A stretch of 64,000 nt of DNA from contig CAYSUK010000001.1 of NCBI GenBank assembly GCA_964434265.1, positions 47,126-111,125 of the forward strand, written 5' to 3'. The stretch is from an uncultured Christensenella sp. Lineage in GTDB: Bacteria; Bacillota; Clostridia; Christensenellales; UBA1242. Every line of letters starts with the position of its first letter. The stretch's first letter is position 1. The notes beneath the pieces are model-generated. The model saw only the letters and a program-made list of their open reading frames with translations, was not told where the DNA came from and searched no databases. Positions 18,304 through 64,000 of the stretch are shown here, piece after piece. A program made the position numbers and the translations under genes.

Positions 18304-19143
18304 ATGAAGAGTGATATTTTGTTTGACCGCATAGGATTTGAAGCGGGCAGTGATTTGTGCGGCGGAAAGAGTGTTTTGAGAAAACTAAAACATGGTTTGA
18401 TTAGAGAAGATTTTTCGATTAAGGATATGTCGACATCTAGGAAACTTGCAAAGCCTATTGGTGATTATACCTTGCTTACAATTGATAGTTATACTGACAA
18501 TGTCGATAAGGTGTATTATATAATTGACATTTTGAGTAAAATACTTGGCGAGTATATCGGTGATACTGATGGCAAACGCATACTTGTTGTGGGGCTTGGA
18601 AACCGATATATTACGGCCGACACTTTGGGGCACGAAGTAGTGAGCAGAGTGGTCGTGAGTGGTAAAGGGACGATTGTGAATGCAATTGTTCCGAGTGTCA
18701 AAGGGCTGACGGGGATAGAGAGCTGTGACATTGTGGAAGGTGTGGTCAAAAAGACCAAACCTGACGTGGTGGTCGTGGTGGATTCGTTGTGTGCGAGCGA
18801 CATAAAACGGATTGGCACGTGTATTCAGTTTTCAAATGGTGGCATGACCCCGGGATCGGGTATTCGTAGTCCAAGGCGAGCACTTTCTAGTAAAAACCTT
18901 GGGTGCAAGGTCGTATCTATCGGGGTGCCGTTTGTGGTGTATGTAAGCACAATTATCGACACAATGTTTGGCGGTATGCAAGGTACTATGCAAAGGGACA
19001 AAGTCGCCCGAAACAAAGCCGAACTTGAAAATATGGTTATGACCCCGAGCGATATTGATGTGCGAGTGGAAGAACTGGGCAAAATAATATCGACCGCTCT
19101 AAACAAAACACTACTTGGTGTCGACGGATATAGCGACTTTTAG
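18304..19143 (+). CDS. gpr: GPR endopeptidase (spore germination protease)
   Basis: Motifs seen: RILVVGLGNRYITADTLG, VVVVDSLCA, and GG.TPGSGI. The divergent rpsT-gpr neighbourhood matches Bacillus and Clostridium. Confidence 0.88.
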   Translation: MKSDILFDRIGFEAGSDLCGGKSVLRKLKHGLIREDFSIKDMSTSRKLAKPIGDYTLLTIDSYTDNVDKVYYIIDILSKILGEYIGDTDGKRILVVGLGNRYITADTLGHEVVSRVVVSGKGTIVNAIVPSVKGLTGIESCDIVEGVVKKTKPDVVVVVDSLCASDIKRIGTCIQFSNGGMTPGSGIRSPRRALSSKNLGCKVVSIGVPFVVYVSTIIDTMFGGMQGTMQRDKVARNKAELENMVMTPSDIDVRVEELGKIISTALNKTLLGVDGYSDF

Positions 19144-19178: not shown

Positions 19179-19697
19179 ATGAGAAAAAGTGGTTTTGTAG
19201 TGCTTGGAATAATTGTGGCTCTGGCATGTGTGGTTGTTTTGTTTGCAGTCAGTTTTCCTGTTCGAAATAAAAAATTTGTGGCAAGTGTTTGCGAAAAATA
19301 CGACCTTGAAGTGAGTCTGGTTTTGGCGGTTATTAATGTCGAAAGTGGTTGGGACGAAGACGCAGTATCTAGTAGTGGTGCGGTTGGGGTTATGCAAGTT
19401 ATGCCAAGCACGGCTGAAGAAGTGGCTATGCGGCTTGGACTTACAAATTATGACATTACAGATTTTGAAGATAATGTGACGATAGGTTGTTGGTATCTAA
19501 GATATCTACTTGATATGTTTGGTGATTTAAGGCTTGCACTTTGCGCATACAATGCCGGGCCCAATAATGTCCGTGATTGGCTTGATAATCCAGAGTATAG
19601 TGACAATGGTAAACTTACAAAAATACCCTTTAAAGAAACCCGTAATTATGTGAAAAAGGTGAATTTTAATAAAAAGGTATACGATATTTTAATTTAA
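19179..19697 (+). CDS. Membrane-anchored lytic transglycosylase (SLT domain)
   Basis: An N-terminal TM helix is followed by the catalytic INVESGW, then GVMQVMP, then AYNAGP. Confidence 0.85.
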   Translation: MRKSGFVVLGIIVALACVVVLFAVSFPVRNKKFVASVCEKYDLEVSLVLAVINVESGWDEDAVSSSGAVGVMQVMPSTAEEVAMRLGLTNYDITDFEDNVTIGCWYLRYLLDMFGDLRLALCAYNAGPNNVRDWLDNPEYSDNGKLTKIPFKETRNYVKKVNFNKKVYDILI

Positions 19698-50020: not shown

Positions 50021-52825
50021 CTAATTTTCCAAATTTTCATCTGAAGTAGATTCTTGATTGTCTGTATTGTTTTGAGATTGTTTTTCGATTTCTTTGGATT
50101 GAGTTTTGTCATCTTTCTTTTTGTTTTCTACTTTTTTAGATTGTTCGTTTAGAGCATCTTTCTTTTGCTTTTTCTTGAAGATAACAAACCATACAATTAG
50201 AGCGATAATAATCACAAAGTTTACTGCAAAAAGTATAATTGCCGTTGTGATAATAGGTGATGTCCCATCTGTTGCGATATACTTTGTGTCTATGTATCCA
50301 ACTACAATATTGTTGTCGTCATCTAGGTATTTTATCAGAGTCAATTTTTCGTTTTTATCTAGATTTTCCACATAAATTCTATAATTGTTTGGCAATTTTC
50401 CAATTATGGTTGTTTTTTCTTTATCAGAATAAACATTTACATATTCGCTATAATCATATATTTTGATAGTGCTGTTTGCATTAAACTTTTGTGATATGTT
50501 TACATTTGCAGTTACGTATGATGATGCGACAAAACCATATCTGCCGTCGTTTGTCATAATGATATAATACGTATTTGAAGTGTTGTCGATTGAAATAGGG
50601 TAGGTGGCTACGGCGGTAATTACTGTGCTAATATATTCAATTCTGCCTGTTGTATAACTGCCTATAATTGTCGGAAATTTGTATATAGGTGTTTTGTTGT
50701 AAGATGTAATAAGCGAATAGTTTTGATCAGCTGTTACAGCATAAGTTGTTATTGAATCTGTTTCGACATAGCCAAGTTTGACATTGTTGTCTTGGACATA
50801 CAATACATAACTAAACACACTAGTGGATTTATTGGTGTCAAGTAGTATCACATATTTGTCTTCGTCAAACAAACTATGATTGCCTTTATAGTTTATGTAT
50901 TCATAAATATAGGTTTGAGCAGGCACTTTGGCGTATTTGACTATGCTTGTATATCCAAACTCGAAAGTCAAAGCATCGTCTTGAAACGACTCAAAATCGC
51001 AATAACCTTGTGTAAAATCGTCATTGTTAAAGTACACTATGCGTGAAGCATTTTCATCATAAGCATATACTGTTCCGTCTTGTGGATTGACTTCAAATAC
51101 ATTTATTTTGTATTCGTCGCCAAAACTGATATTGGTCAAACAATCTGTCAAAGCCCCGTTGTCAAATGAATATCTTTGTATATTGTTTTTGTCTTCAAAA
51201 CTTATATATATCGACTGGTCAGAAGTGGGAATGGAAATGTCGGCGATATCGTCGTCAAATTCATTTTCAAATTTTAGACTTGGGGTCGATACATTGACTT
51301 TGTGTAAGGTTTTGTCGACTGTGATGTATACATAATTGTCCATATAATCTATTTTGCTATATGCATTTGTTGTAAAATCGAGATTTATATCATTGTCAAA
51401 ACTGTTGGAGTTTGTATCATAAACTTTTACAGTATTTTCGCTAAGTAAATAAATTTTGTCACCGTCAGTAATTGTAGAATCGTAAGTGGCGTTTGGAAGG
51501 TCTACTACCTTAACTACTGCAGGCTCTTCTTCGGTGAATATATTAACCTTGCAAAGAGATGTTTGTATTGAGTCTGTACGTATAAAATACAAAGAGTTGT
51601 CGGAAGAAAGCATAATTGATGTTGCATAATAGTTTGTGCTTCCTTCTTTAAGTTCGATGACTTTTACACTTCTGTCTTGGTAAATGACTTGAATGCGATT
51701 GTTTGCTCTGTCAGACACAAAAACATATTCGTTGCACTTCATTGCGATGTCACTTACATTGTCAAATCTTCCTACTTCACTGCCTTTGCCCATGAGTAGA
51801 GTAGTGCTGTCTGAAAGTGAAAGTTTGTTGTCTTGTGACATTGTGATGGTGTAGGCCTCTATATTACAATCGTTGCTGTTGTAATAATACAAAACATCAT
51901 TACTTACAAATATTATGTTGTTGGCATCATTATTGGAACGAAGTGTGGTTGATGGAGTGTTGTTTATGTCTTTATCAAATAATGAGATTGCTTTAGCAGT
52001 AGACCTAGCTATGTATGTCTCATCTTCATATGTGAAAGCCCGCAAACTGCATGTGTCTTTATCAAAATCTGCAATGGTTTTTTTCTCGTGACAAGATGGT
52101 GATAAGGTAGTGTCGTTTTGCTCGATACTAAATGGATATATATCATCACCATTAACAATAAAGGCATTGTTTCCGTTCAAAACCAAGTTGCTTATGCTGT
52201 TGCTATCGATGCTAAGTGTCGATAAATCATATTCGCCAATTGCTAGATAACTGCCATTTTTTAGGTTGTCCTTGCCATCGAAAATTGCGACACCTAGATA
52301 AGACGTAGAATTTTTTTGATAAATGCTTGCATAAGCTGTCTTTCCGTTGCCAAAATCTGCAAGTGTCGAATGTGTTGGATTGTTTCCAAATTGTTCGATA
52401 TTACCTATTCTTTCGCAAGTGTTTGTGTCATATATGGTTGTTTGTATTCCATATCTCAACATTATCATGTTGTTTGCATAATCCATATACTGAAACGAAT
52501 TGATTGCACCATTTATGCTTCGAGTATTTCCATCAACAATGACTTGCTTTTGATTTTGAGTAAAATTGTATTTTACGAAAGAGTAATAATACTCCGCATC
52601 AATTTGTTTTCCCTTTGTTATGAAAAATATATCGTCTCCGACTACGCAAAAATCTTTTACGTCATTTAGATTAAGATAGTGACTGATGTTTGAAGGATAA
52701 ATAGTACTAAGCGATTGTTTTGGTGACTCGTCTGCAAACGAAACAGAAGTGGGTGAGTAAGTTACGCCCAAAATAAGTAAAACACCTATACAAAAAGATA
52801 AAATATATTTTCCGAGTTTTTTCAT
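50021..52825 (-). CDS. Large exported, C-terminally TM-anchored protein (934 aa) with beta-propeller/NHL-like and SH3b-like regions
   Basis: Signal peptide MKKLGKYILSFCIGVLLILG...SFA. One NHL-like motif SDRANNRIQVI. An SH3b-like C-terminal region ends in GYIDTKYI. The TM helix is IITTAIILFAVNFVIIIALIVWFVIF, followed by a K/E/Q-rich tail. Confidence 0.7.
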   Translation of the reverse strand: MKKLGKYILSFCIGVLLILGVTYSPTSVSFADESPKQSLSTIYPSNISHYLNLNDVKDFCVVGDDIFFITKGKQIDAEYYYSFVKYNFTQNQKQVIVDGNTRSINGAINSFQYMDYANNMIMLRYGIQTTIYDTNTCERIGNIEQFGNNPTHSTLADFGNGKTAYASIYQKNSTSYLGVAIFDGKDNLKNGSYLAIGEYDLSTLSIDSNSISNLVLNGNNAFIVNGDDIYPFSIEQNDTTLSPSCHEKKTIADFDKDTCSLRAFTYEDETYIARSTAKAISLFDKDINNTPSTTLRSNNDANNIIFVSNDVLYYYNSNDCNIEAYTITMSQDNKLSLSDSTTLLMGKGSEVGRFDNVSDIAMKCNEYVFVSDRANNRIQVIYQDRSVKVIELKEGSTNYYATSIMLSSDNSLYFIRTDSIQTSLCKVNIFTEEEPAVVKVVDLPNATYDSTITDGDKIYLLSENTVKVYDTNSNSFDNDINLDFTTNAYSKIDYMDNYVYITVDKTLHKVNVSTPSLKFENEFDDDIADISIPTSDQSIYISFEDKNNIQRYSFDNGALTDCLTNISFGDEYKINVFEVNPQDGTVYAYDENASRIVYFNNDDFTQGYCDFESFQDDALTFEFGYTSIVKYAKVPAQTYIYEYINYKGNHSLFDEDKYVILLDTNKSTSVFSYVLYVQDNNVKLGYVETDSITTYAVTADQNYSLITSYNKTPIYKFPTIIGSYTTGRIEYISTVITAVATYPISIDNTSNTYYIIMTNDGRYGFVASSYVTANVNISQKFNANSTIKIYDYSEYVNVYSDKEKTTIIGKLPNNYRIYVENLDKNEKLTLIKYLDDDNNIVVGYIDTKYIATDGTSPIITTAIILFAVNFVIIIALIVWFVIFKKKQKKDALNEQSKKVENKKKDDKTQSKEIEKQSQNNTDNQESTSDENLEN

Positions 52826-52969: not shown

Positions 52970-52993
52970 AATATGACATACTGTTGTCATATT
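52970..52993. promoter_or_regulatory. Perfect 9-bp-arm palindrome (operator candidate)
   Basis: AATATGACA-TACTGT-TGTCATATT. Confidence 0.5.
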
Positions 52994-53084
52994 AAGGTGT
53001 ATATAATAGGGCAAATGTTCGATAATGTTTGAAAAGTAGGTATTTTTGTACACTAAATATTAAATTTAAAAATATTTTGCAAAA

Positions 53085-53128
53085 ATATGTCATAACCTTT
53101 TGACATTTGGCATTTACACAAATATAAT
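53085..53128 (+). promoter_or_regulatory. Consensus sigma-70 promoter overlapped by a second TGACAT/ATGTCA inverted repeat
   Basis: TTGACA (53100-53105), 17-nt spacer, TATAAT (53123-53128). ATATGTCA (53085-53092) and TGACAT (53101-53106) form an inverted repeat across the -35. Confidence 0.7.
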
Positions 53129-53159
53129 TAAGAAAAAAATGAAAAATGGAGAAACAAAA

Positions 53160-53720
53160 ATGAAAGCATGGAGCAAAACATTATTATCAGTTTATAGGTA
53201 TCTCGAATCGATTACGGGTGCCATCGACAACCTAATAGTCAAGAAGGGGGTAAACTCAATGTTTTACACTGACAAACGCGGACTTACGACATACGATTGT
53301 GCAAATGATATCATCGAATTGACCGATAGAAAAATCAATCTTATAAATCTTAAAGTCCTAGTCGAAGATGGATTAAACAAATTGCCGTTCGAACAAAAAC
53401 GTGTTTTGATGTTGTTTTATGTTGACGGCCTAAAAACGACAGAGGTTACAAAACTTATGGGGTGTGTAGAACGTACTTTTTTTAGGAAAAAGGACGAAGC
53501 AATTGTTGCATTTGGTAAAAATTTAAAGTGTATGGGGTTTGATGAAATAAGACTTAGTCAAATGTTTGGGAAAGAAAAATGGCTAAGTAATTTGCTTGTT
53601 AAAAATCAACAACACGAAGCACTTGGCAAGTTGGGGAAAGAATTGCCAGAGTACAATTTTTTGAAAAATGTCATCAAAGAACTTAGTCAAATAAATTTTC
53701 AAAAAAGTTATGGGTACTAA
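53160..53720 (+). CDS. Sigma-70 region-4-like phage late-gene regulator candidate
   Basis: L.KLPFEQKRVL.LFYVDGLKT.EV.KLMG...RTF.RKK.EA matches sigma region 4. ATG at 53160 follows GGAGAAA. The track's TTG start at 53100 is the -35 hexamer. Confidence 0.65.
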   Translation: MKAWSKTLLSVYRYLESITGAIDNLIVKKGVNSMFYTDKRGLTTYDCANDIIELTDRKINLINLKVLVEDGLNKLPFEQKRVLMLFYVDGLKTTEVTKLMGCVERTFFRKKDEAIVAFGKNLKCMGFDEIRLSQMFGKEKWLSNLLVKNQQHEALGKLGKELPEYNFLKNVIKELSQINFQKSYGY

Positions 53721-53774
53721 TTTTTTTAGACTGATATTGTCGCAAATTAGATAAAATTGACAAAAATTGTTGTA

Positions 53775-54500
53775 TCAAAGGCTGTCTTCTCCGAAGTCGA
53801 TTTTGACCTTGCGATGCGGCTTCTTGTCGTGCGGTTTGCGAAAAATGATGTATAAGATGAGCAGGCTTGGAATTGTAAGAGCGATTACGATTATGATGCA
53901 CTCAAGATTTGTTAAGGGATTTAAAAGCCCAGACCTGTCGACAATATATGCAAGGTTTTCACCGTTTGGAAATATGCTCGAGATGTTTTGGACATAACTG
54001 CTATAAATATATCCTTTTACGTTTAGATACTCGACATAGTACCACGTATTTTGTCCAAAATCCTCGACATTTTCGCCTATGGTTCGTCCGATAAAAATAA
54101 GGCTAGTACAATTGGCGGGAAGAATAGAAATTGTGTTGTCGCCACGTTCGGGAGTTGTGCGAAGATAACAGTTTTTGTTGTATGTTTGTAATTTTATATC
54201 GGTCGGATATGGTGTAGTGGGTACACCCTTGACAAGCCGTATCGAAGATGGTTTTACATATCCGCTTACACCGTTGTAGTTTACACGGACTTTGTCTGTA
54301 GAACTGCTGATTACTTCGACATAATAAGTTTTTTCTAGAAGACAAATTACGTTTGAATGGCTTTGGTCATATACATCATAACGATATAAAAAGTCGCCAC
54401 TATTTAGTATTTGTGCATATTGTGTGTTTTCACAGTATGCACTTTTTGTAGGGCAAATTGACGTAAAAATTATAAAAAAAATCAAAATTATTTTTGCCAT
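53775..54500 (-). CDS. Exported SH3b-repeat protein with a C-terminal TM anchor (241 aa)
   Basis: A signal-like N-terminus is followed by two SH3b-like units ending in GVSGYVKPSSI and VKGYIYSSYV. The TM helix is IIIVIALTIPSLLILYIIF, followed by a basic tail. Confidence 0.65.
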   Translation of the reverse strand: MAKIILIFFIIFTSICPTKSAYCENTQYAQILNSGDFLYRYDVYDQSHSNVICLLEKTYYVEVISSSTDKVRVNYNGVSGYVKPSSIRLVKGVPTTPYPTDIKLQTYNKNCYLRTTPERGDNTISILPANCTSLIFIGRTIGENVEDFGQNTWYYVEYLNVKGYIYSSYVQNISSIFPNGENLAYIVDRSGLLNPLTNLECIIIVIALTIPSLLILYIIFRKPHDKKPHRKVKIDFGEDSL

Positions 54501-54603
54501 ATAATCACCTAAGTATATTTTAACAAAAAATTAATTTTGTTACATTTTAAGACTTGTAAAAAATGTGGAGATATATGTCTAAAAAAATACATTTGGGGAG
54601 AAA

Positions 54604-56034
54604 ATGAATACACATGAAATTAAAATAAAACTAAGACTACTTGATGCCGAAATCCGTCGACGTGAAAACAACAAAAACTTGTTTGCCTATAATACGGGAG
54701 ATAAGGTGCATAAAAAGCAACTCATGTTTCATAAATGCCCAAAACATAATCGCTGGGTTTTTGGTGGAAATCGCAGTGGCAAAACCGAGTGTGGTGCTGT
54801 CGAAGCGATATGGTTGGCGCGTGGCATACACCCGTATCGAGAAAATACGCCAGATTGTGATGGTTGGGTGGTGTCGCTAAGTACACAAGTCCAACGTGAT
54901 GTTGCCCAACGAAAGATATTGCACTATCTAAACCCCGACTGGATAGTAGATGTCACAATGCTTAGTGGTAAAAAAACCTCTCTTGAAAGCGGTGTGATTG
55001 ATACGATTACCATAAAAAACGTGTTTGGTGGAACAAGTCGTATTGGCTTTAAAAGTTGTGACCAGGGCAGGGAAAAGTTCCAAGGCACGTCATTAAACTG
55101 GGTATGGTTTGATGAAGAACCGCCATACGATATCTATGTCGAGTGTTGTATGCGTGTTATGGACAGGGCTGGAGACGTTTTTGGAACAATGACACCGCTC
55201 AAAGGTCTTACTTGGGTCTACAACACAATCTATCTAAACGAAGCCAATAATCCAGAAATTTGGCATATCCATATGGAGTGGTCAGACAATCCATTTTTAA
55301 ATCCCGAACAGGTCAAACACATGACCGAAACTTTTAATACGGAGGAACTAAATGCAAGACGATTTGGGCTGTTTTCTAGTTTTGGTGGGCTTGTATATAA
55401 TGAGTTTGATTCAAATATTCATGTAATCGAGCCGTTTGATGTCCCGCATGATTGGTACGATAAAATATCCATCGACCCGGGACTGAAAAATCCACTTAGT
55501 GCACACTGGTATGCTGTCGACTTTGATGGAAACATATATGTCATTGCCGAACACTATGAGAGTGGTCGCGATATCATATATCACAGTAAAGCAATAAAAG
55601 ATATATGTGACCGACTTGGCTGGCAAAGAGACTCAAATGGTAGGGTAGTTGCACTTATAGACTCGGCAGCAAATCAACGTACCTTAGCATCGTCAAAAAG
55701 TGTAACCGAACTTTTTTATGACAACGGTATTTTGGCAAATCCGCGTGTAGACAAAGACATGTTTAGTGGGATACAAAGAGTGAAGTCATATCTTAAAAAT
55801 GCAGACGGCAAGGCCAAACTTTTCATATTTAAATCGTGCACAAATATGATACGAGAGATCAAAGGATACTTTTGGGGGAATGAAGATTCACCTATTAAAA
55901 AAGACGACCATGCAATGGACGAACTGAGATACTACATCATGTCGAGACCGGAGAATATCAAACGCGAAACCAAGACGATAATTCAGAAAGATAAAGAGCG
56001 GCGGATTAGAGAGCTTAGAAAGGGGTGGTACTAA
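54604..56034 (+). CDS. terL: Phage terminase large subunit
   Basis: Walker A GGNRSGKTE, Walker B WVWFDEEP, and the C-terminal nuclease motif DDHAMDELRY. Confidence 0.92.
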   Translation: MNTHEIKIKLRLLDAEIRRRENNKNLFAYNTGDKVHKKQLMFHKCPKHNRWVFGGNRSGKTECGAVEAIWLARGIHPYRENTPDCDGWVVSLSTQVQRDVAQRKILHYLNPDWIVDVTMLSGKKTSLESGVIDTITIKNVFGGTSRIGFKSCDQGREKFQGTSLNWVWFDEEPPYDIYVECCMRVMDRAGDVFGTMTPLKGLTWVYNTIYLNEANNPEIWHIHMEWSDNPFLNPEQVKHMTETFNTEELNARRFGLFSSFGGLVYNEFDSNIHVIEPFDVPHDWYDKISIDPGLKNPLSAHWYAVDFDGNIYVIAEHYESGRDIIYHSKAIKDICDRLGWQRDSNGRVVALIDSAANQRTLASSKSVTELFYDNGILANPRVDKDMFSGIQRVKSYLKNADGKAKLFIFKSCTNMIREIKGYFWGNEDSPIKKDDHAMDELRYYIMSRPENIKRETKTIIQKDKERRIRELRKGWY

Positions 56035-56354
56035 TGCAAAGAGTAGATGAGCGGACAAAACTCGAAAATGCTCTAATGAAAAAGGCGCTCGGATATATGT
56101 GCGAAGAAGTGACCGAAGAGTATGTAGGTGAAACTAAAGATGATATGAAACTGTGCAAGAAAAAGGTTAATAAAAAAAGTGTTCCGCCTGACCTTGCGTC
56201 GCTACAAATATTGCTGTCGAGACTTGACGAACAAAACGAATATAAGTCGTTTAGTGATGCCGAACTGTATTCTGAGCGAGAGAAACTGCAAAAATTATTA
56301 GAAAAGGGGGGAGAAGATGACGATAGAAGAGATGACAACAACACTCAAATGTAG
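56034..56354 (+). CDS. Small protein resembling the C-terminal half of Firmicute-phage terminase small subunits
   Basis: KKALGY..EEVTEEY......K.....K.VPPD..SLQ.LL resembles the ..GYEYEE......K.VPPD..A..FWL segment of TerS proteins. The start is coupled to the terL stop (TAATG). No N-terminal HTH is present. Confidence 0.45.
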   Translation: MQRVDERTKLENALMKKALGYMCEEVTEEYVGETKDDMKLCKKKVNKKSVPPDLASLQILLSRLDEQNEYKSFSDAELYSEREKLQKLLEKGGEDDDRRDDNNTQM

Positions 56355-56514
56355 TGTGCCGGGCTGTTCAAACATGGCTGATTTTGTCGTGGTAAACGAA
56401 AAAATATTTGCTAGAAGCCGATTATGTTTTTGCAAGTCATGTGCAAAAACACTCTATACATGTTTGGGCAAAAAAATTGTGCCCAAAAGCCCAAAAAACA
56501 TATTAAACAAATAG
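56317..56514 (+). CDS. Small Cys-rich (putative zinc-ribbon) protein, 65 aa
   Basis: C....C ... C.C..C.....C spacing. GGGGGGAG lies just upstream of the ATG. The gene overlaps the previous ORF by 38 nt. Confidence 0.45.
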   Translation: MTIEEMTTTLKCSVPGCSNMADFVVVNEKIFARSRLCFCKSCAKTLYTCLGKKIVPKSPKNILNK

Positions 56515-56530
56515 TATCAAAGGAGAAATA

Positions 56531-58417
56531 ATGGATAAAAAATTACATTTTGAAGATGTTTTGGATAAAGAAACCGAACAAAAAATAGTGTCTGAAGTGC
56601 TAGAAGACTTTGATTTGCGTCGTCAAAATCGAAAAAGTTTTGAGATGACGTGGCAACTTAATATAAATTTTCTACTTGGAAATCAATACTCGTACATAAA
56701 CGGAAACAATGAAATTGTTAGTGAGCGAAAACAGTATTTTTGGCAAGAACGTGAAGTATACAATCATATTGCACCTTTAGTAGATTTGCGTATGGCAAAG
56801 CTGGCTCGTGTAAAGCCTACACTTACCGTTCTTCCGTTTAGTGACGACCCTAAAGACATAGCTTGTGCAAAGGTCAGTAAAAATCTTATTAAATCAGTTT
56901 GTTATGACCTGGACATGAGTTCGCTTATAGCCGAAGCAACAATGTGGAGTGAGATTACGGGGACTTCGTTCTATAAAATCACATGGAATAGTAGCAAAGG
57001 CAAGTTTGTTGGAATAGACGATAGCGGTCAAAGTATCAGAGAAGGCGAAGTCGAACTTTCAGTTGTGTCACCATTTGAAATATTCCCCGACAATAATACG
57101 TATAGCCGAATTGATGATTGCAAAAGTATTATTCATGCTAGAGCATATCATAGAGATGAAGTCAAAAACATCTGGGGTATTGAAGTAGAAGGTCGCGATA
57201 CCGATGTGTTTTCTCTTGATAGTACAAGTATCCTAGGTGGATTGGGTTATAGTGGAAACAGTGTGAGTGTTGGCCGAACTATGCGCCATGATCAAGTGAT
57301 TGTGGTTGAGAGATACGAACAACCAACAGTCGAGTTCCCAAATGGTAGACTGATTATTGTTGCTGGTGACAAACTTGTTTATATGGGTGAGTTGCCGTAC
57401 ATAAATGCCTTTGATGGCAAACGCTCTTTTCCGTTTGTAAAGCAAACATGCTTGTGCATTCCAAATTGTTTTTGGGGTTCTTCAATTATCGAAAGATGCA
57501 TTCCGATACAACGCGCATACAATGCAGTTAAAAACCGCAAACATGAGTTTTTAAATCGCATCGCAATGGGTGTGTTGGCTGTCGAAGATGGGTCGCTAGA
57601 TATCGACAATTTGGAAGAAGAAGGGTTGTCGCCGGGAAAAGTTCTTGTTTATCGACAAGGTGCAAATTTTCCTAAAATGTTGCAAAACGAAGAAGTGCCA
57701 TCTACTTTTGATAAAGAAGAAGAAAAACTTATAGAAGAATTTTCAAATATCTCTGGTGTGAGTGATCTCCAACATCAAAATGTTCTTTACAACAATGTTA
57801 GTGGCGTTGTGCTCCAACTACTTATCGAACAAGACGAAGCGAGACTGACAGCTAGCATAAACGAAGTAAAGGATAGTGTTAAAAATGTTGCAAAACACAT
57901 ACTAAGACTTTACAAACAGTTTGCTGTATATTCGCATAGCACTCGACTAATAAACGATAATGGCGAGATAGAAATGTTGTATTGGAAAAATAGTGACCTA
58001 AATTGTGAAGATATAGTATTTGAGACTGAAAACGAAGTAGGGCAAACTATAGCACAAAGGCGCAGCATGATATACGAAGTGTTAAATGCGGGGCTACTCA
58101 ACGATGAAGATGGCGGAATGTCGCTCTCGACACGTCAAAAAGTGCTCGAACAACTTGGCTTTGGGATTTTGGAAACTACAAAAGATGCAAAGACCCTGCA
58201 AAAAAATAGGGCAAATAAAGAAAATTACAACCTTATAAAAGGGAATCAAATGCCGTCACCAAAGTTTATAGACGAGCATGATATCCACATAAATGAGCAT
58301 ATATGCTTTGCACTTAGTAAGGATTTTGAAGATGCTGTCGAAAAAAATCCAGCAATCGAAAACATACTAAACGAACATATTAAGGTGCATAAGCAAATGC
58401 AAAAAGAAAACCAATAA
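56531..58417 (+). CDS. Phage portal protein (candidate)
   Basis: The call rests on size (628 aa) and position between the terminase and scaffold/capsid genes. A good SD is present. It is not motif-verified. Confidence 0.65.
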   Translation: MDKKLHFEDVLDKETEQKIVSEVLEDFDLRRQNRKSFEMTWQLNINFLLGNQYSYINGNNEIVSERKQYFWQEREVYNHIAPLVDLRMAKLARVKPTLTVLPFSDDPKDIACAKVSKNLIKSVCYDLDMSSLIAEATMWSEITGTSFYKITWNSSKGKFVGIDDSGQSIREGEVELSVVSPFEIFPDNNTYSRIDDCKSIIHARAYHRDEVKNIWGIEVEGRDTDVFSLDSTSILGGLGYSGNSVSVGRTMRHDQVIVVERYEQPTVEFPNGRLIIVAGDKLVYMGELPYINAFDGKRSFPFVKQTCLCIPNCFWGSSIIERCIPIQRAYNAVKNRKHEFLNRIAMGVLAVEDGSLDIDNLEEEGLSPGKVLVYRQGANFPKMLQNEEVPSTFDKEEEKLIEEFSNISGVSDLQHQNVLYNNVSGVVLQLLIEQDEARLTASINEVKDSVKNVAKHILRLYKQFAVYSHSTRLINDNGEIEMLYWKNSDLNCEDIVFETENEVGQTIAQRRSMIYEVLNAGLLNDEDGGMSLSTRQKVLEQLGFGILETTKDAKTLQKNRANKENYNLIKGNQMPSPKFIDEHDIHINEHICFALSKDFEDAVEKNPAIENILNEHIKVHKQMQKENQ

Positions 58418-58443
58418 AGTTATGTTATTATATCTATTTATAA

Positions 58444-58493
58444 TATGATTTCATAACCAATTATAATTATTATGTAAATTATGATTTCATAAC
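58444..58493 (+). repeat. 14-bp perfect direct repeat pair in a 233-bp non-coding gap
   Basis: TATGATTTCATAAC occurs at 58444-58457 and 58480-58493. A further pair, TTTATAGTT, occurs at 58579-58587 and 58592-58600. Confidence 0.8.
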
Positions 58494-58650
58494 TAAATTA
58501 AGGCATATGTTACAAATTGCAAAATGTTATATAATCATAACTTTAATAGATACAATCTATTAAAATATTGTGTAAAGATTTATAGTTAAATTTTATAGTT
58601 GTATCAAAGTAATATTAAATTCAAACCACATAAATAAGTAGGAGATAAAA

Positions 58651-59268
58651 ATGGAAAATGAAAAAATAATTGGAGAACAATCTTTAGATACCCCTAATAG
58701 TGTAGCGACACATGAAGAAAGTGAAGGGCGAGTAGAACAGGACTCTCCAATAGAAAAATTTAAAAATGCCAAGGCACTTATGGAGGCGTACAAATCTTTG
58801 CAAAGTGAATTTACAAAAAAGTGTCAAAAATTGTCCGAATATGAAAAACAACAAGATAATGCGAAAGTACCTTGTTTTAGACGAGACGATTGGCAAAATC
58901 AGATAAGTGAGTTTTTTGATAAAAATCCCGAAGCGAAAGAATATGGAGAACAAATTGTAAATGAGATTATAAGCGACAATGATTTGGCGATGTCAAATTC
59001 CCCGCTTGTTTCTGCATACAATAGAGTGGTCAAAAAACAACTTTCTGACAAGGAAAGTTTTCTCAGTGACGAAAACAATTTGGTTGAGTTTGTGTTAAAA
59101 AATGAGCAAATTTTATCAAAAATCCTTAAAAAAAGTGGTGAAAACATACATTTTTCACCAAAATTAATTTCATCAAATGTAGGTAGTACTCATATTGTTA
59201 CGCCAAATTTGAGTGCTAAAAATCTTGATGAAGCCAAACAAATCTTAAAGAAAATGCTTAATAATTAG
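58651..59268 (+). CDS. Phage scaffolding protein (candidate)
   Basis: An acidic, helical 205-aa protein sits immediately upstream of the capsid gene. Confidence 0.55.
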   Translation: MENEKIIGEQSLDTPNSVATHEESEGRVEQDSPIEKFKNAKALMEAYKSLQSEFTKKCQKLSEYEKQQDNAKVPCFRRDDWQNQISEFFDKNPEAKEYGEQIVNEIISDNDLAMSNSPLVSAYNRVVKKQLSDKESFLSDENNLVEFVLKNEQILSKILKKSGENIHFSPKLISSNVGSTHIVTPNLSAKNLDEAKQILKKMLNN

Positions 59269-59278
59269 GAGAAAAAAT

Positions 59279-60460
59279 ATGGTAACACTTGCTACCGCTG
59301 ACAAGGCTTTAAAGAGTGTTTATCTTGGTGTACTTACAAACCAATTTAATCTAAACACAAATCCTTTGTTTGCAAAAATTAAAAAATCTAGTACTTACGT
59401 TACTGGAAAAGAAGTTATAAAAACAGCACCAATTGGAATCAATGGTGGTATCGGTGCTGGCTCAGAAGATGGGGTGCTTCCTACTGCTTCTGGAAATAAT
59501 TATGTTCAAATGAAACAAACTTTAAAAAACCTTTATGGAACTATCGAGATAAGTGATAAAGCTGTTAGGGCTAGTCAAAACGATGCTGGAGCATTTGTCA
59601 ATTTGTTAAATGCTGAGATGGAAGGACTCATTAAAGCTAGCACTTTCAATTTCTCTCGTATGCTTATGGGAAATGGTAGTGGCAAACTTGCAGAAATCCA
59701 ATCTGGTAGTGCAAATGTGTGCGTTGTGGACGAAATCTACAATCTTATGGAAGGTATGATTATTGACATTTATGACTCTGCAAATGAGCAAATAAGTTCT
59801 ACCTATAAGGGTGTAAAAATTGTCGCAATAGATCGCAACAATAAAAAGGTAACTTTTGACGCTCAAGTTGGTACAATTAGTGACCTTACTGATGGTGGAT
59901 ATTATTTAGTTGTTCAAAATTCGTTAAGACAAGAAATCTTTGGGCTTGATGGTATTTTTGACACAACAAACTTTACCAACATTTATTCGCTTCCAAGAAG
60001 CACAAATTCGTGGCTAAATCCTGTAATTAAAAATAGTGTAGGCGATATATCAGATGCAGTCATTCAAGAAGGTATTGATAAGGTCGAAGAATACTATGGT
60101 GGTGCTATTGACTTTATTACTTGCTCGAGTGATGTAAAAAGAAAATATCAAACATATCTTGCAAGCCTTTCACGTAATATTGATGTACTAAATTTGGAAG
60201 GTGGTTTTAAAGCGATAAGTTATGCTGGAGTTCCTGTCATGAGTGATAGATTTATGAAGAGCGGAACTATGTATCTACTTAATTCAAATTCATTTACATT
60301 GCACCAACTTTGTGATTGGGAATGGCTTGAAGGTGATGATGGCTCAATATTGAAGCAAAAACCTGGTTATCCATGCTACAGTGCAACGCTTGTTAAATAC
60401 GCTGAATTAATGTGTGAACAACCATGTAATCAAGTAAAACTTGCTGGCATTAATGTGTAA
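59279..60460 (+). CDS. Phage major capsid protein (candidate)
   Basis: 393 aa, positioned after the scaffold gene, with a strong SD and followed by a strong hairpin. The N-terminal pattern L...Y......Q.N....LF..I is typical of capsid families in Firmicute phages. Confidence 0.7.
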   Translation: MVTLATADKALKSVYLGVLTNQFNLNTNPLFAKIKKSSTYVTGKEVIKTAPIGINGGIGAGSEDGVLPTASGNNYVQMKQTLKNLYGTIEISDKAVRASQNDAGAFVNLLNAEMEGLIKASTFNFSRMLMGNGSGKLAEIQSGSANVCVVDEIYNLMEGMIIDIYDSANEQISSTYKGVKIVAIDRNNKKVTFDAQVGTISDLTDGGYYLVVQNSLRQEIFGLDGIFDTTNFTNIYSLPRSTNSWLNPVIKNSVGDISDAVIQEGIDKVEEYYGGAIDFITCSSDVKRKYQTYLASLSRNIDVLNLEGGFKAISYAGVPVMSDRFMKSGTMYLLNSNSFTLHQLCDWEWLEGDDGSILKQKPGYPCYSATLVKYAELMCEQPCNQVKLAGINV

Positions 60461-60473
60461 AATTTAAAATTGT

Positions 60474-60500
60474 GGGGTGAGTAATCTCACCCCTGATTTT
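60474..60500 (+). terminator. Strong GC hairpin after the capsid gene (terminator/attenuator)
   Basis: GGGGTGAG-TAAT-CTCACCCC followed by TGATTTTAT. Confidence 0.65.
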
Positions 60501-60516
60501 ATATAAGGAAAAAATT

Positions 60517-60888
60517 ATGAAAATTAAAATAAATGATGACGTTTTTGATATAGTAAAAAGATTGCAAGATATAGACGACTCGTATTATGTCTTGTATGAT
60601 AATGTAAAAAATCGATATGAAGTTTGGTCTTTGTGTGAGAAGTCTATGTGCTTTGTGGTGCCATATGCCACACTTGATGCTCGGACGATAGCATATGCGC
60701 TAAAAACAAATTCAAATAATGCACAAAAATTGTTTAATGAAATTGATAAAAACAATAATGAAATAATGAAAAACGAATGCAATAAAATCATAGATCAAAA
60801 TACATATAAATTTAAAGAGATATTTGAGTATGAAAAGCTTTCGAGACAGATGTCTCTTGATAAGGCTTTTTGTACTACATGGGTCTAA
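60517..60888 (+). CDS. Phage hypothetical protein (123 aa)
   Basis: The ORF has an SD and sits in the operon. I recognise no family. Confidence 0.6.
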   Translation: MKIKINDDVFDIVKRLQDIDDSYYVLYDNVKNRYEVWSLCEKSMCFVVPYATLDARTIAYALKTNSNNAQKLFNEIDKNNNEIMKNECNKIIDQNTYKFKEIFEYEKLSRQMSLDKAFCTTWV

Positions 60889-60897
60889 GGGGGTAGT

Positions 60898-61458
60898 ATG
60901 CAAGTAAATAAAATAATTCGAAATTGTGCAGTGCTTTTAGATGATGAAGAGTTGTTGGCAGAACTTGATTTGAATGCTGACATGTCAGAACAGTGCTTGT
61001 CTATAAGAAACAAACTTGTCGAATGCGTAAATATTGTAAATAGGAAAATTGCAACATTGTATTGTCCGGTTAAGATGAAAAAAGTTTTGAAATCAAACAA
61101 AAATAAAATATTGATTTCTGATATAATAGAAGGAGAAATTATAGAAATATTACAAGTTTTGATTAATAATGTTAAAAGTGCATTTTATGTAGAAAATGGG
61201 TATTTAATTACAGAAACAAGTGGTAATATGACAATATCTTATAACATATTGCCAAAAACTATTAAATATACGGACAACATTGATTATTATAATAATAAAG
61301 TCAATGACAATATTTTTGCATATGGTGTCGTAAGTGAGTATCTTTATATTATGGGAAATTTTGTAGATGCAAAAATGTGGGAAGATAAGTTTGTTTCTGG
61401 ATTAAGTAGCATAAATAAGCATAGAGATATTGTCATGCCTAAAAGAGGTTGGTATTAA
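60898..61458 (+). CDS. Phage hypothetical protein (186 aa), possible head-tail connector
   Basis: GGGGG SD. The connector suggestion rests only on position after the capsid gene. Confidence 0.55.
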   Translation: MQVNKIIRNCAVLLDDEELLAELDLNADMSEQCLSIRNKLVECVNIVNRKIATLYCPVKMKKVLKSNKNKILISDIIEGEIIEILQVLINNVKSAFYVENGYLITETSGNMTISYNILPKTIKYTDNIDYYNNKVNDNIFAYGVVSEYLYIMGNFVDAKMWEDKFVSGLSSINKHRDIVMPKRGWY

Positions 61459-61459
61459 A

Positions 61460-62911
61460 ATGTCTAATGTAATCAATTACAAAACTTTTGATTTTAAAAA
61501 AATATCTAATGGCCTAAATATAAATGGTGTGCCTGCTGTAGATAATCTCGGTGCGTCGAGTAGTGTCTACAATTTTTCCTATGATAGCGATAGATTGAAA
61601 GATTGTTTTGGGATTAAAAATTTTTATTTTTCAAATAATGGAGTAGATGTAGAAGTTGATTTTCCATCTAATGTTGTCCCTAAAAAAATGTATTCACTCA
61701 CTTTCAAAGATGAGTCGCTTTCGTGTTTGGTAGTTGTCGGAGATAATCAAAAGGCTTATATGTGGAATTATAAATCTACTTCGGGTGATATGCTTGAGAT
61801 ACCATTTGATGTAAAAAATATTCCAAGTGTCTTCAATTTTTTTGATGAAAATGGAGACCCTTGCATTGCTTGTTCGTATGACAATATGATAAATGTGTAT
61901 AATATCACTAAAAAAATGTGTGATTTTATTTTCTACACATATAGTCTTTCAGAAGTATCCTTTTTAGATGATTGTGTAGTGGGACTTCTTAATGATGACC
62001 CATATTCTTTTTGGTACACAACTTCGAGATTTCCAAAAGACTGGACAACAACTGGCGAAAAATGCACCATTCAGAATGTTGATGTTTCACTCGGTAAGTG
62101 TTTGCGAATATTTAAGATGGAAGAAAATCTGTATCTTGTCAGAGAATATGGTATCCAAAGGCTGGTATTTGATTTTGAGACAAATAAATATCAGGTTCAA
62201 AATGTGGGGCAAAGTATCGGTCGTATATATTCTGAAAGCATTTGCCAAAATGGTGCAAAAATAATTTATCTCACGACTAGTGGTTTGTATGAGTTTAATG
62301 GCGCGACTAGTAAACGCATAGTTACAAATGTAGAGCATATGCTAGCGTCTTACAAAAACACAGCGACTGTTTGTCAAAATGGCAAGTATTATATCGCGAC
62401 CAAATACGACTTTGGTGACAATATGGCTCTTGGAACTGAATCAAATCAATCAAGCACAAACAATGTGCTTCTTTGTATCGACCTTGAAACCAAATTGGAA
62501 AAAATACTGCGTGGTGTAGACGTGATACAACTTATAGATATAAACACTTCGTTTTTGACAGACATCGGTTTGATGGTATTTGATGGGATAAAAAACCGCC
62601 TATCAAGACTTAACGACGCAAACACAATTTTTGGCCGAAATCTATTAAAACATTGGTCGAGTATCTCTACTGATTTTGGAATGCCAGACAAGAAAAAAAT
62701 AATCAGTAAGTTTTTCATAATCACAAAACAAGACATAACGCTCACACTGCATTGTGACAGACACAAATATGCAGTCAAACTAAATGGCGGCGAGCATGTT
62801 CAAGTCGTGCGTCCCAATATTAGTGGTCAGACCTTTTCATACTCTATAGAGACAGAAACTCCAAACACGGAGATATATGGAATGAAGGTATTGGTAGGTT
62901 ATGCTGAGTGA
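61460..62911 (+). CDS. Phage structural protein candidate (483 aa), repetitive beta-rich
   Basis: ATG at 61460 lies directly after the previous stop. The composition is beta-strand rich. I recognise no family. Confidence 0.55.
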   Translation: MSNVINYKTFDFKKISNGLNINGVPAVDNLGASSSVYNFSYDSDRLKDCFGIKNFYFSNNGVDVEVDFPSNVVPKKMYSLTFKDESLSCLVVVGDNQKAYMWNYKSTSGDMLEIPFDVKNIPSVFNFFDENGDPCIACSYDNMINVYNITKKMCDFIFYTYSLSEVSFLDDCVVGLLNDDPYSFWYTTSRFPKDWTTTGEKCTIQNVDVSLGKCLRIFKMEENLYLVREYGIQRLVFDFETNKYQVQNVGQSIGRIYSESICQNGAKIIYLTTSGLYEFNGATSKRIVTNVEHMLASYKNTATVCQNGKYYIATKYDFGDNMALGTESNQSSTNNVLLCIDLETKLEKILRGVDVIQLIDINTSFLTDIGLMVFDGIKNRLSRLNDANTIFGRNLLKHWSSISTDFGMPDKKKIISKFFIITKQDITLTLHCDRHKYAVKLNGGEHVQVVRPNISGQTFSYSIETETPNTEIYGMKVLVGYAE

Positions 62912-62994
62912 CAGAACATAAAAAATATCCAGACCTATATAAAGCGGTCTTAAAAATCAAACAACGTCAATTTGAAGAAAAAGGGGGATACGCT

Positions 62995-63690
62995 ATGTAT
63001 AATAGTATGTTGGACGAAGCGTTTGCAAACGTGCTCAGTCTTGCAAAATCCGACGAACTAAATTCTAAAATAGATACACTTAATGAGAAGGTCACAAATA
63101 TGACAGCCACAATCGATGGAAACGACTCATCACTAGAGCAAGAAACAGAACTAGTGCCTGCATGGCAAAACAATGTTGTGGACCTGTCATTTTTGTCCCC
63201 AGAAGACAAGGAAAATTATGACAATTTTTGCTCGCAAAACAATTTGCTCACAGCCCAACTAAACGACTTGTATCTAAATATTGAGGACCTAAACAAACAA
63301 CGTGCCGAAGCAATAAAAAACTATGATATTTCAGCAGTAGTGGATATTGACGAACGGTTGTTGGATTTAAACAAACAATACAAATCCAAATACAATGAAA
63401 GTCTCGAATTTAAATCAAAGGTACAGGGAAGTAGAGATGAGTGGGAAAAGAACCTTAGTGACTTAAAAGAAGTGCTCAAAGATGAAAAATGGGAGAAATC
63501 TAAATCCATCGATAAAAGCAAATATGCTCCAAGTGTATTAAAAGAGTACAAGCAAAACAAAACTGTCGAGTTGGTAAAGTCGTTTATTGACGATTTTCCA
63601 AAAGACCAAGCAAAAATTTTACTTAACAACAATCGCATAAAAGACATGCTTGGCGAAAGCTATAATAAAGTATTGAAGGAGTATATGTGA
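62995..63690 (+). CDS. Phage coiled-coil protein (231 aa from ATG 62995; GTG 62908 is an alternative start)
   Basis: GGGGGA SD lies 7 nt before ATG 62995. The sequence is heptad-rich in K/E/L/N. Confidence 0.55.
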   Translation: MYNSMLDEAFANVLSLAKSDELNSKIDTLNEKVTNMTATIDGNDSSLEQETELVPAWQNNVVDLSFLSPEDKENYDNFCSQNNLLTAQLNDLYLNIEDLNKQRAEAIKNYDISAVVDIDERLLDLNKQYKSKYNESLEFKSKVQGSRDEWEKNLSDLKEVLKDEKWEKSKSIDKSKYAPSVLKEYKQNKTVELVKSFIDDFPKDQAKILLNNNRIKDMLGESYNKVLKEYM

Positions 63691-63932
63691 TGTGGGAGAA
63701 AATAATAAATCTTGCTATAGGCAATGGACTATGGGCGGTTTTGTTTTTGATGCTGCTCGTATTTGTACTAAAGGATAGTCGTACAAGAGAACAAAAATAC
63801 CAAGAAACAATCGAAAATCTTGGCACTGCATTGCAGGTTGTTCAAGATGTCAAGGCAGATGTTGAAGATATAAAAACCACGATTTCTACATTTGTTACTT
63901 CAAGGGGTGAAAATGAAAAAACTACTAAGTAA
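63690..63932 (+). CDS. BhlA/UviB-family holin-like protein
   Basis: LWAVLFLMLLVFVLKDSRTREQKYQE.I..L parallels the BhlA pattern (FAVLF..LLFYV.K.S..RE.K....I). GAAGGAG SD is present, and the start shares an ATGA overlap with the previous stop. Confidence 0.7.
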   Translation: MWEKIINLAIGNGLWAVLFLMLLVFVLKDSRTREQKYQETIENLGTALQVVQDVKADVEDIKTTISTFVTSRGENEKTTK

Positions 63933-64000
63933 ATTTAAAAAATACACATTTTGGGTGGCTTTTGTAGGAGTGCTTGTATTGTTTTTACAAAATCTGGCAA
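63913..64000 (+). CDS. Second holin-like small membrane protein, 3' end cut by the window
   Basis: ATG at 63913 follows AAGGGGTGA. The translation MKKLLSKFKKYTFWVAFVGVLVLFLQNLA... has a basic N-terminus followed by a TM helix. It is absent from the ORF track because no stop falls in the window. Confidence 0.4.
   Translation, partial: MKKLLSKFKKYTFWVAFVGVLVLFLQNLA

Follow-up and report, generated by a model that had tools for sequence, protein, structure and literature searches.

A 64,000-nucleotide stretch of DNA from an uncultured Christensenella sp. (contig CAYSUK010000001.1, positions 47,126 to 111,125; hereafter the window) carries, from about position 52,970 to its end, a cluster of phage-derived genes for a sigma-like regulator, a large terminase subunit (TerL), a portal, a capsid protein, a predicted short tail and two holins. 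We consider that this cluster is probably a domesticated, vertically inherited element of podovirus (short-tailed phage) origin, about 11–13 kb long and similar to a gene transfer agent (GTA) or viriform. An original prediction, made from the sequence alone, had placed here a phage-like element running from operators, a perfect promoter and a regulator through packaging and head genes and four open reading frames (ORFs) to two holin-like genes; all the features that it named were present, as judged from the ORF list and family scans, with matches for TerL, the portal, the capsid, a BhlA-family holin and a further holin that the end of the window truncates (Table 1). A scan for capsid relatives with one genome per species was positive in 150 genomes, 80 of which were fetched.

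TerL was 60–79% identical across loci, and between its gene and that of the portal lie two small ORFs of 109 and 65 amino acids (aa) that the original prediction had omitted. In the family of the 109-aa protein, 17 of 41 members matched the small-terminase (TerS) family phrog_309 (best E 3e-7) and 8 of the 41 matched another TerS family, phrog_23444. The window protein itself aligned to positions 197–247 alone of the 319-position phrog_309 profile, leaving the N-terminal part uncovered, and appears to be a small-terminase remnant without the N-terminal DNA-recognition part. The protein in the scaffold position gave no match in family or PHROG scans, protease included. For the capsid protein, the NCBIfam scan returned NF033394 capsid_maj_Podo and nothing else; known phages are distant capsid relatives (24–28% identity, Microbacterium and Cellulosimicrobium phages), and a single-sequence search against PDB sequences found no match. 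The conserved 123-aa protein encoded next, without a match in family, PHROG or PDB-sequence profile searches, might at a guess be a head or neck accessory.

In the original prediction, no tail protein was seen among the four ORFs between capsid and holins, which proved wrong for tails of the short type. An AlphaFold2 model of the 186-aa protein, built with 93 homologues (predicted local distance difference test score, pLDDT, 86.7), matched in Foldseek searches of the PDB the adaptors of KHP30 (E 1e-5, template modelling (TM) score 0.62), SU10, N4, Pa223 and T7 (gp11), and in BFVD it matched proteins that bear the names head-to-tail adaptor or tail tubular protein A. Pfam SU10_adaptor was matched by two distant family members, one at and one just under the 27-bit cutoff. 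By its predicted fold, the 186-aa protein is a podovirus head-to-tail adaptor.

The model of the 483-aa protein came from only 8 sequences and had a mean pLDDT of 63, with residues ~90–290 mostly above 80. Its top Foldseek matches were chains of podovirus tail complexes (Pa223, E 1e-14; SU10, 9e-13; Pan3; VP1; P22, 5e-10; GP4; and T7 gp12), which we read as nozzle proteins, and on this model the 483-aa protein is a podovirus nozzle. Because the TM-scores were modest (~0.35–0.47), the assignment depends on the consistent ranking and on the position of the gene 3′ of the adaptor gene. PDB-sequence profile searches with the families of both proteins, and with that of the 123-aa protein, gave no match, the adaptor and nozzle being identified by fold comparison only.

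The fourth ORF, for a protein of 231–260 aa, has a relative in only 4 other loci; a relative in L069 passes the DUF7934 cutoff with 50.8 bits. A single-sequence search against PDB sequences with the 231-aa protein found no match; by position only, our guess would be a tail needle, fibre or plug. In L002 (13639–14823) and L055 (13664–14809), an extra gene of 381–394 aa, absent from the window and without a family match, lies between the nozzle and DUF7934-like genes and may encode a lineage-specific tail appendage.

A holin-domain gene followed the nozzle gene in 52 loci. In the closest relative, L081 (a Logan contig), the full homologue of the truncated second holin has 286 aa, an acidic tail and a Phage_holin_1 match; the L081 capsid protein (P0002) is 90% identical to that of the window, and the gene order is identical. 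Exact-sequence look-up of the window's 260-aa protein and capsid in a contig index returned no record. Downstream of the BhlA holin, L081 encodes the 286-aa holin, a 316-aa protein, a 94-aa ORF, RNase J, an O-methyltransferase, a U32 peptidase and a sigma factor, and its cluster ends about 1–2.6 kb beyond the position of the window end; the cluster end is the same in L002, L055 and L063. Loci of the Onthoplasma type have ordinary housekeeping genes 3′ of the holin, for CysS, a PLD-domain protein, glycosyltransferases of the GT8 and GT28 families, thymidine kinase and phosphoketolase.

A tail module, integrase and repressor just downstream had been named as what would make the element an ordinary prophage. 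None was found in L081 and the nearest relatives, nor was a replication gene found 3′ of the cluster in L081, where housekeeping genes stand instead; a prophage with a mid-genome lysis cassette is ruled out by these downstream genes of the relatives. As had been predicted, there is no lysogeny or replication module, either in the window or in annotated relatives, and a contractile tail module (sheath, tube, tape measure) had no match in the window or 3′ in relatives. Family scans recognized no endolysin, receptor-binding fibre or tailspike, or ejection protein in the cluster. The 316-aa protein of the relatives was considered as the missing endolysin and ruled out: it reads as a multi-pass membrane protein, has no family match and may be chromosomal, outside the element.

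At least 80 of the 150 species-representative genomes positive for a capsid relative carried the cluster; those fetched, 80 in number, were labelled mostly as Clostridia, Christensenella, Christensenellaceae, Christensenellales or Candidatus Onthoplasma (placed by NCBI in Christensenellaceae). Where contigs reach, the order is conserved: polysaccharide deacetylase, single-stranded DNA-binding protein (SSB), regulator, a reverse-strand SH3-domain gene, TerL, small ORFs, portal, scaffold, capsid, 123-aa protein, adaptor, nozzle and holin. Of 48 loci that were informative, 45 had the SSB gene no more than 4 kb 5′ of the regulator, GyrB/ParE-like and GyrA/ParC-like genes lay 5′ of the cluster wherever contigs reach, and the RNase J gene lay 3′ of it in 11 loci.

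Pairwise identities of nine element genes correlated with those of the deacetylase at r = 0.88–0.95. Against RNase J, which is certainly outside the element, r was 0.83 for TerL, 0.77 for the portal, 0.72 for the adaptor, 0.48 for the nozzle and 0.44 for the capsid. TerL, capsid and portal (mean identities 0.72, 0.66 and 0.62) were conserved equally to the flanking genes (0.58–0.60) or more. Ratios of non-synonymous to synonymous substitution rates (dN/dS) were 0.01–0.24 in close pairs for the element genes where computable, and expected-length ORFs were kept in 50–80 genomes, those of ten core genes across genomes whose flanking proteins are ~50–60% identical. While many Christensenellales-type gut bacteria diverged, the cluster stayed at the same place in the chromosome.

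Matches in IMG/VR were short fragments of the same chromosomal cluster, except for L092, a 60-kb contig with a different TerL and with a 1394-aa tail fibre 3′ of the nozzle-position gene; L092 shows what a free phage of the lineage carries and the cluster lacks. Among public sequencing runs only two metagenomes matched, with 8–9% of words. The capsid was more distant in L055 and L063, which have closer flanks, than in Onthoplasma loci. Between the window and L081, synonymous divergence was ~0.5–0.9 in the capsid, scaffold, 65-aa and 109-aa genes and ~1.3–3.7 in neighbouring genes; the low values may reflect codon-usage constraint, which PMC9765227 reports for alphaproteobacterial GTA genes.

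Table 1. Positions in the window of the cluster's genes and candidate regulatory sites, with the matches or observations behind each
Feature	Position	Strand	Evidence or remark
934-aa membrane protein gene, between SSB and regulator	50021–52825	-	ORF; omitted in the original prediction
Palindrome, 8+8 perfect, ATATGACA-TACTGT-TGTCATAT (N6 spacer)	52971..52992		Candidate operator 5′ of regulator gene; read from sequence
Half-site ATATGTCATA	53085..53094		Abuts -35 hexamer; read from sequence, partly from inverted-repeat listing (I12)
Consensus sigma-70 promoter TTGACA-17-TATAAT of regulator gene	53100..53128	+	12/12 match
Sigma-70 region-4-like transcription regulator	53160..53720 (alternative start ATG 53139)	+	Family matches below cutoff
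SH3_3-domain membrane protein, 241 aa, C-terminal transmembrane helix	53775..54500	-	SH3_3 28.7 bits; inside cluster; omitted in the original prediction
Non-canonical late promoter candidate, TTTTGTTACA ... CTTGTAAAAAA, 5′ of terL	54535..54563	+	Seen by eye; no statistical score
TerL	54604..56034	+	Terminase_6N E 4e-11; phrog_2 E 3e-27
Short TerS-like protein, 109 aa	56025..56354	+	Family matches to TerS PHROGs
65-aa Cys-rich (zinc-ribbon-like) protein	56317..56514	+	No family match; relative in 50 related loci between TerS-like gene and portal
Portal, P22/SU10 type	56531..58417	+	P22_portal 59 bits (cutoff 26.1); SU10_portal 31.1 bits; phrog_156 E 7e-32
Scaffolding protein, probable	58651..59268	+	Position only; every locus has it between the portal and capsid genes
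Major capsid protein, podovirus family	59279..60460	+	NCBIfam NF033394 capsid_maj_Podo 253 bits (cutoff 80); phrog_14242 E 2e-57
Conserved 123-aa protein	60517..60888	+	Relative in 70 related loci; also 3′ of capsid gene in phage-like contig L092
Predicted head-to-tail adaptor of short-tailed phages, 186 aa	60898..61458	+	Structure prediction and Foldseek
Predicted tail nozzle of short-tailed phages, beta-propeller core, 483 aa	61460..62911	+	Structure prediction and Foldseek
231–260-aa protein, reads helical and charged, DUF7934-related	62908..63690	+	DUF7934 E 9e-6, below cutoff
BhlA-family holin	63687..63932	+	Holin_BhlA 59.5 bits (cutoff 22.6)
Second holin, start only (window end cuts gene)	63913..64000	+	phrog_962 holin E 8e-4

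The predicted regulatory sites were also recovered at the left end of the cluster. The perfect palindrome and the half-site are operator-like, and their role as operators is a candidate function; the motif TATGACA/TGTCATA was found at two places 5′ of the regulator gene in the two closest relatives, L081 and L002. Promoter-like sites in the region were in total not above shuffles, the site at 53100–53128 being the only perfect one. This promoter covers the mechanical TTG start of the regulator ORF at 53100, so the start is either ATG 53139 or ATG 53160; the latter, with GGAG nine bases 5′, is the likelier of the two. The regulator matched Sigma70_r4_2 (23.9 bits, E 3e-5, below the cutoff of 25.7), DUF1492, phrog_36 (E 5e-9) and the sigma-factor family phrog_1740 (E 7e-7); these matches to sigma-70 region 4, DUF1492 and PHROG transcription-regulator and sigma-factor families are concordant though sub-threshold, and agree with the sigma-region-4-like protein of the original prediction. 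With a relative in 51 related loci, it is a candidate activator of the structural operon.

Upstream of terL, a TTTTGACA/TTTTGGCA ... TTTTGGTGTAAAT-type element was seen by eye in many related loci and may be a target of the sigma-like regulator. It reads as a promoter-like TTTTGACA(A/C)(G/C)TTTAGG ... CGAGTTTTGGTGTAAATTA, ~20–70 nt 5′ of terL (for example, in L010 and L014), and its two parts are spaced too far apart for a standard sigma-70 promoter.

The genes 5′ of the cluster are ordinary chromosomal ones, as the original prediction had it: GyrB/ParE-like, GyrA/ParC-like, a polysaccharide deacetylase, a two-OB-fold SSB (NCBIfam PRK05813, 307 bits) and the 934-aa membrane protein. The window ORF list has no ORF between the 934-aa gene and the regulator, and so no Xre-type repressor there, and GC content does not change across the cluster boundary. 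The 241-aa SH3 protein encoded inside the cluster has a relative in 52 related loci, in the same position and orientation. It shares its architecture with the 934-aa protein, which is restricted to close relatives: both have an extracellular part with SH3-like domains, one C-terminal transmembrane helix and a tail rich in Lys.

From motif reading of translations, we take 17–45 kb of the window to consist of ordinary housekeeping genes (for example, lysS, clpC, obg, ddl and murG). Motif reading likewise suggests to us that 18304–19143 (+) is a spore germination protease (GPR)-like gene and that 19179–19697 (+) encodes a wall hydrolase, presumably a small membrane-anchored SLT-like lytic transglycosylase, 34 kb from the cluster. 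A single 5608-aa ORF at 121–16947 (+) is rich in Thr, Ser, Gly, Asn and Tyr, lacks both an LPXTG motif and exact internal 8-mer repeats, and may encode a giant surface or adhesin-like protein.

Five lines of evidence, namely the gene identities, the lack of phage modules downstream, the fixed locus, the co-divergence with host genes and the dN/dS values, lead us to read the cluster as a vertically inherited, selected and domesticated podovirus-like element. What marks a GTA or viriform was found here in two respects: a chromosomal, phage-derived structural cluster has no integration, lysogeny or replication modules and has housekeeping genes flanking it in relatives; and vertical inheritance and purifying selection are seen in the constant SSB neighbour, the correlations and dN/dS, the capsid–RNase J correlation being weak. 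Of the three options in the original prediction, the domesticated, particle-forming, GTA-like element is the one that these observations favour, and the interpretation in that prediction as a whole is partly supported.

In our view, the cluster most probably produces small particles into which host DNA is packaged. The consensus sigma-70 promoter, flanked by the palindromic operator-like sites, would drive the sigma-region-4-like regulator, which would in turn switch on a single rightward operon from terL to the holins, possibly through the element 5′ of terL. Portal, scaffold and capsid protein would assemble into procapsids, and TerL would fill these heads by headful packaging together with the ~100-aa TerS-like protein; as that protein seems to lack the part that recognizes DNA, more or less any DNA of the cell, and not the element itself, would be expected as cargo. 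Adaptor and nozzle would close the portal as a stubby short tail, possibly with the 231–260-aa protein as well in this lineage, and the BhlA and second holins would release the particles, helped by a wall hydrolase encoded elsewhere. Delivery of the DNA to other cells may then follow.

The nearest described system is FpGTA of Faecalibacterium prausnitzii, a near-ubiquitous, podovirus-like, GTA-like operon with capsids of ~40 nm that contain ~8.5–9 kb of host DNA (Borodovich et al., Nat Commun 2026, PMC12946183). Both are chromosomal operons of the order of 10 kb, near-ubiquitous in a lineage of gut Clostridia. Each combines genes for TerL, portal, capsid and a podovirus tail nozzle with genes for conserved hypothetical proteins and for a TerS in which no DNA-binding domain is evident, and each is free of lysogeny and replication genes. 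That portal, nozzle and terminase of podovirus type share an operon is a likeness in kind. The FpGTA capsid is annotated as N4-gp56 family and lies beside a Prp-like protease, whereas here an NF033394 capsid lies beside a scaffold-position gene. Fibres, receptor-binding protein, holin and endolysin of FpGTA are in a second operon ~125 kb away; here, in contrast, holins and a sigma-like regulator are within the cluster, in which no fibre or endolysin was found. FpGTA is known from particles, DNA size and proteomics, the present cluster from genes alone. Since capsid family and layout differ, and the comparison was by annotation only, we file the cluster as the same kind of system and not as a member of an FpGTA family.

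Other systems are more distant. RcGTA belongs to a different phylum, its tail is long, of siphovirus type and includes a tape measure, and it is controlled by the host regulators CtrA and GafA, whereas the present cluster has a short podovirus-type tail, its own sigma-like regulator and holins in the cluster. Likenesses to this alphaproteobacterial agent (from general knowledge and the introduction of PMC12946183) are a phage-derived head and tail cluster fixed in the chromosome, inherited vertically and under purifying selection, and a TerS without sequence specificity; RcGTA also has some accessory functions at other loci. PBSX of Bacillus subtilis, which packages 13.4-kb host fragments (PMC12946183), is likewise a Gram-positive defective element with a sigma-like positive factor ahead of a terminase-to-lysis late operon. 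To that extent the analogy with PBSX and its regulator Xpf in the original prediction holds loosely; it fails in that no contractile tail and no adjacent repressor are present here, whereas PBSX has such a tail and a repressor of the Xre type. The portal, adaptor and nozzle folds, and the order TerL–portal–scaffold–capsid–adaptor–nozzle, are those of P22- and SU10-like phages, from which the cluster differs in its fixed chromosomal position and in having no recognized tailspikes or fibres, ejection, integrase, repressor or replication genes. Full-text literature searches found no paper describing the present cluster.

Several points weigh against this interpretation. What is shown is gene content and an evolutionary pattern, from which regulation, particles, cargo and transfer are inferred, and the particle may be large enough for the whole element. 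With no receptor-binding fibre or tailspike recognized, delivery to recipients is doubtful unless further loci exist, and the cluster is also without a recognized endolysin. The regulator matches fall short of curated cutoffs and confidence in the nozzle model is moderate (pLDDT 63, TM ~0.45). The window stops inside the second holin gene, and where the cluster ends on the right is taken only from relatives, by analogy. For the evolutionary argument, dS is near saturation, and capsid divergence weakly tracks that of RNase J (r = 0.44), which hints at rate heterogeneity or shifts, or at exchange with phages.

The alternative that survives best, unlikely as we think it, is that the particles or the lysis have a role unrelated to gene transfer. 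Part of the population might, for instance, lyse in a programmed way and release DNA or cell contents, or, as with PBSX, DNA might be packaged incidentally and not delivered. The lack of a recognized receptor-binding or ejection protein in the cluster would fit this, as would the holins, the most constant gene after the nozzle, and PBSX and possibly FpGTA have been discussed in this light (PMC12946183). However, the strong conservation of TerL, TerS-like protein and portal is hard to explain if packaging is irrelevant, and a stub tail without sheath or fibre would hardly serve for killing.

Repeated integration beside the SSB gene by a temperate short-tailed prophage (functional or recently defective) or by a satellite seems improbable. 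Every gene is phage-derived, IMG/VR has fragments of the cluster as viral contigs and the correlation with host markers is lower for the capsid gene; but no integrase, repressor, replication or ejection gene occurs in the window or annotated relatives, housekeeping genes lie on both sides, the same locus is occupied in 45 of 48 genomes and divergence matches that of the flanks. Where a complete temperate P22/SU10-like genome would be expected, ~12 kb in total lies between housekeeping genes, in contrast to L092 with its large fibre. The short-tailed phage of the original prediction stands for morphology only and not as a functional phage. Its third option, a capsid-forming satellite that borrows tails (as phage-inducible chromosomal islands, PICIs, do), is rejected because the element encodes its own adaptor and nozzle and needs no helper tail; it also has no att-type genes in the window or annotated relatives. 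Least probable of all is a decaying, functionless remnant not yet lost, which the many missing phage modules and the variable tail end (the 260-aa gene in few loci, the 381–394-aa gene in two) might suggest but which the lengths kept by ten core genes, the low dN/dS and a TerL more conserved than flanking genes contradict.

If the cluster is a domesticated GTA-like element, it may bear on packaging already observed in these bacteria. GTA-like packaging has been reported in metagenome-assembled genomes (MAGs) of Christensenellaceae, with fragments of ~4.1 kb (HGM11616) and ~6.3 kb (QANA01); the study describes a locus search in four other MAGs only and reports none for those of Christensenellaceae (PMC12946183). 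More tentatively, and with some doubt, we suggest that an ancient and independent domestication of a short-tailed phage, common to much of the Christensenellales, could have left a minimal self-contained GTA of ~10 core genes (a sigma-like switch, a stripped TerS, an adaptor-and-nozzle tail and holins) that is the source of the 4–6 kb Christensenellaceae packaging in human faecal virus-like particles.

Few GTAs are known, and only FpGTA (2026) has been described among podovirus-like ones. Conservation of the cluster across genomes with flanking proteins ~50–60% identical would date its domestication deep in the lineage, and it would be a very small model of a phage reduced to a host-owned particle, one operon combining the regulator, the packaging motor, the head, a stub tail and the holins. 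Bacteria of the Christensenellales are widespread in the gut, and the interest of the cluster is moderately high because it gives a concrete, testable candidate locus for GTA-like packaging that was seen from Christensenellaceae without a named locus.

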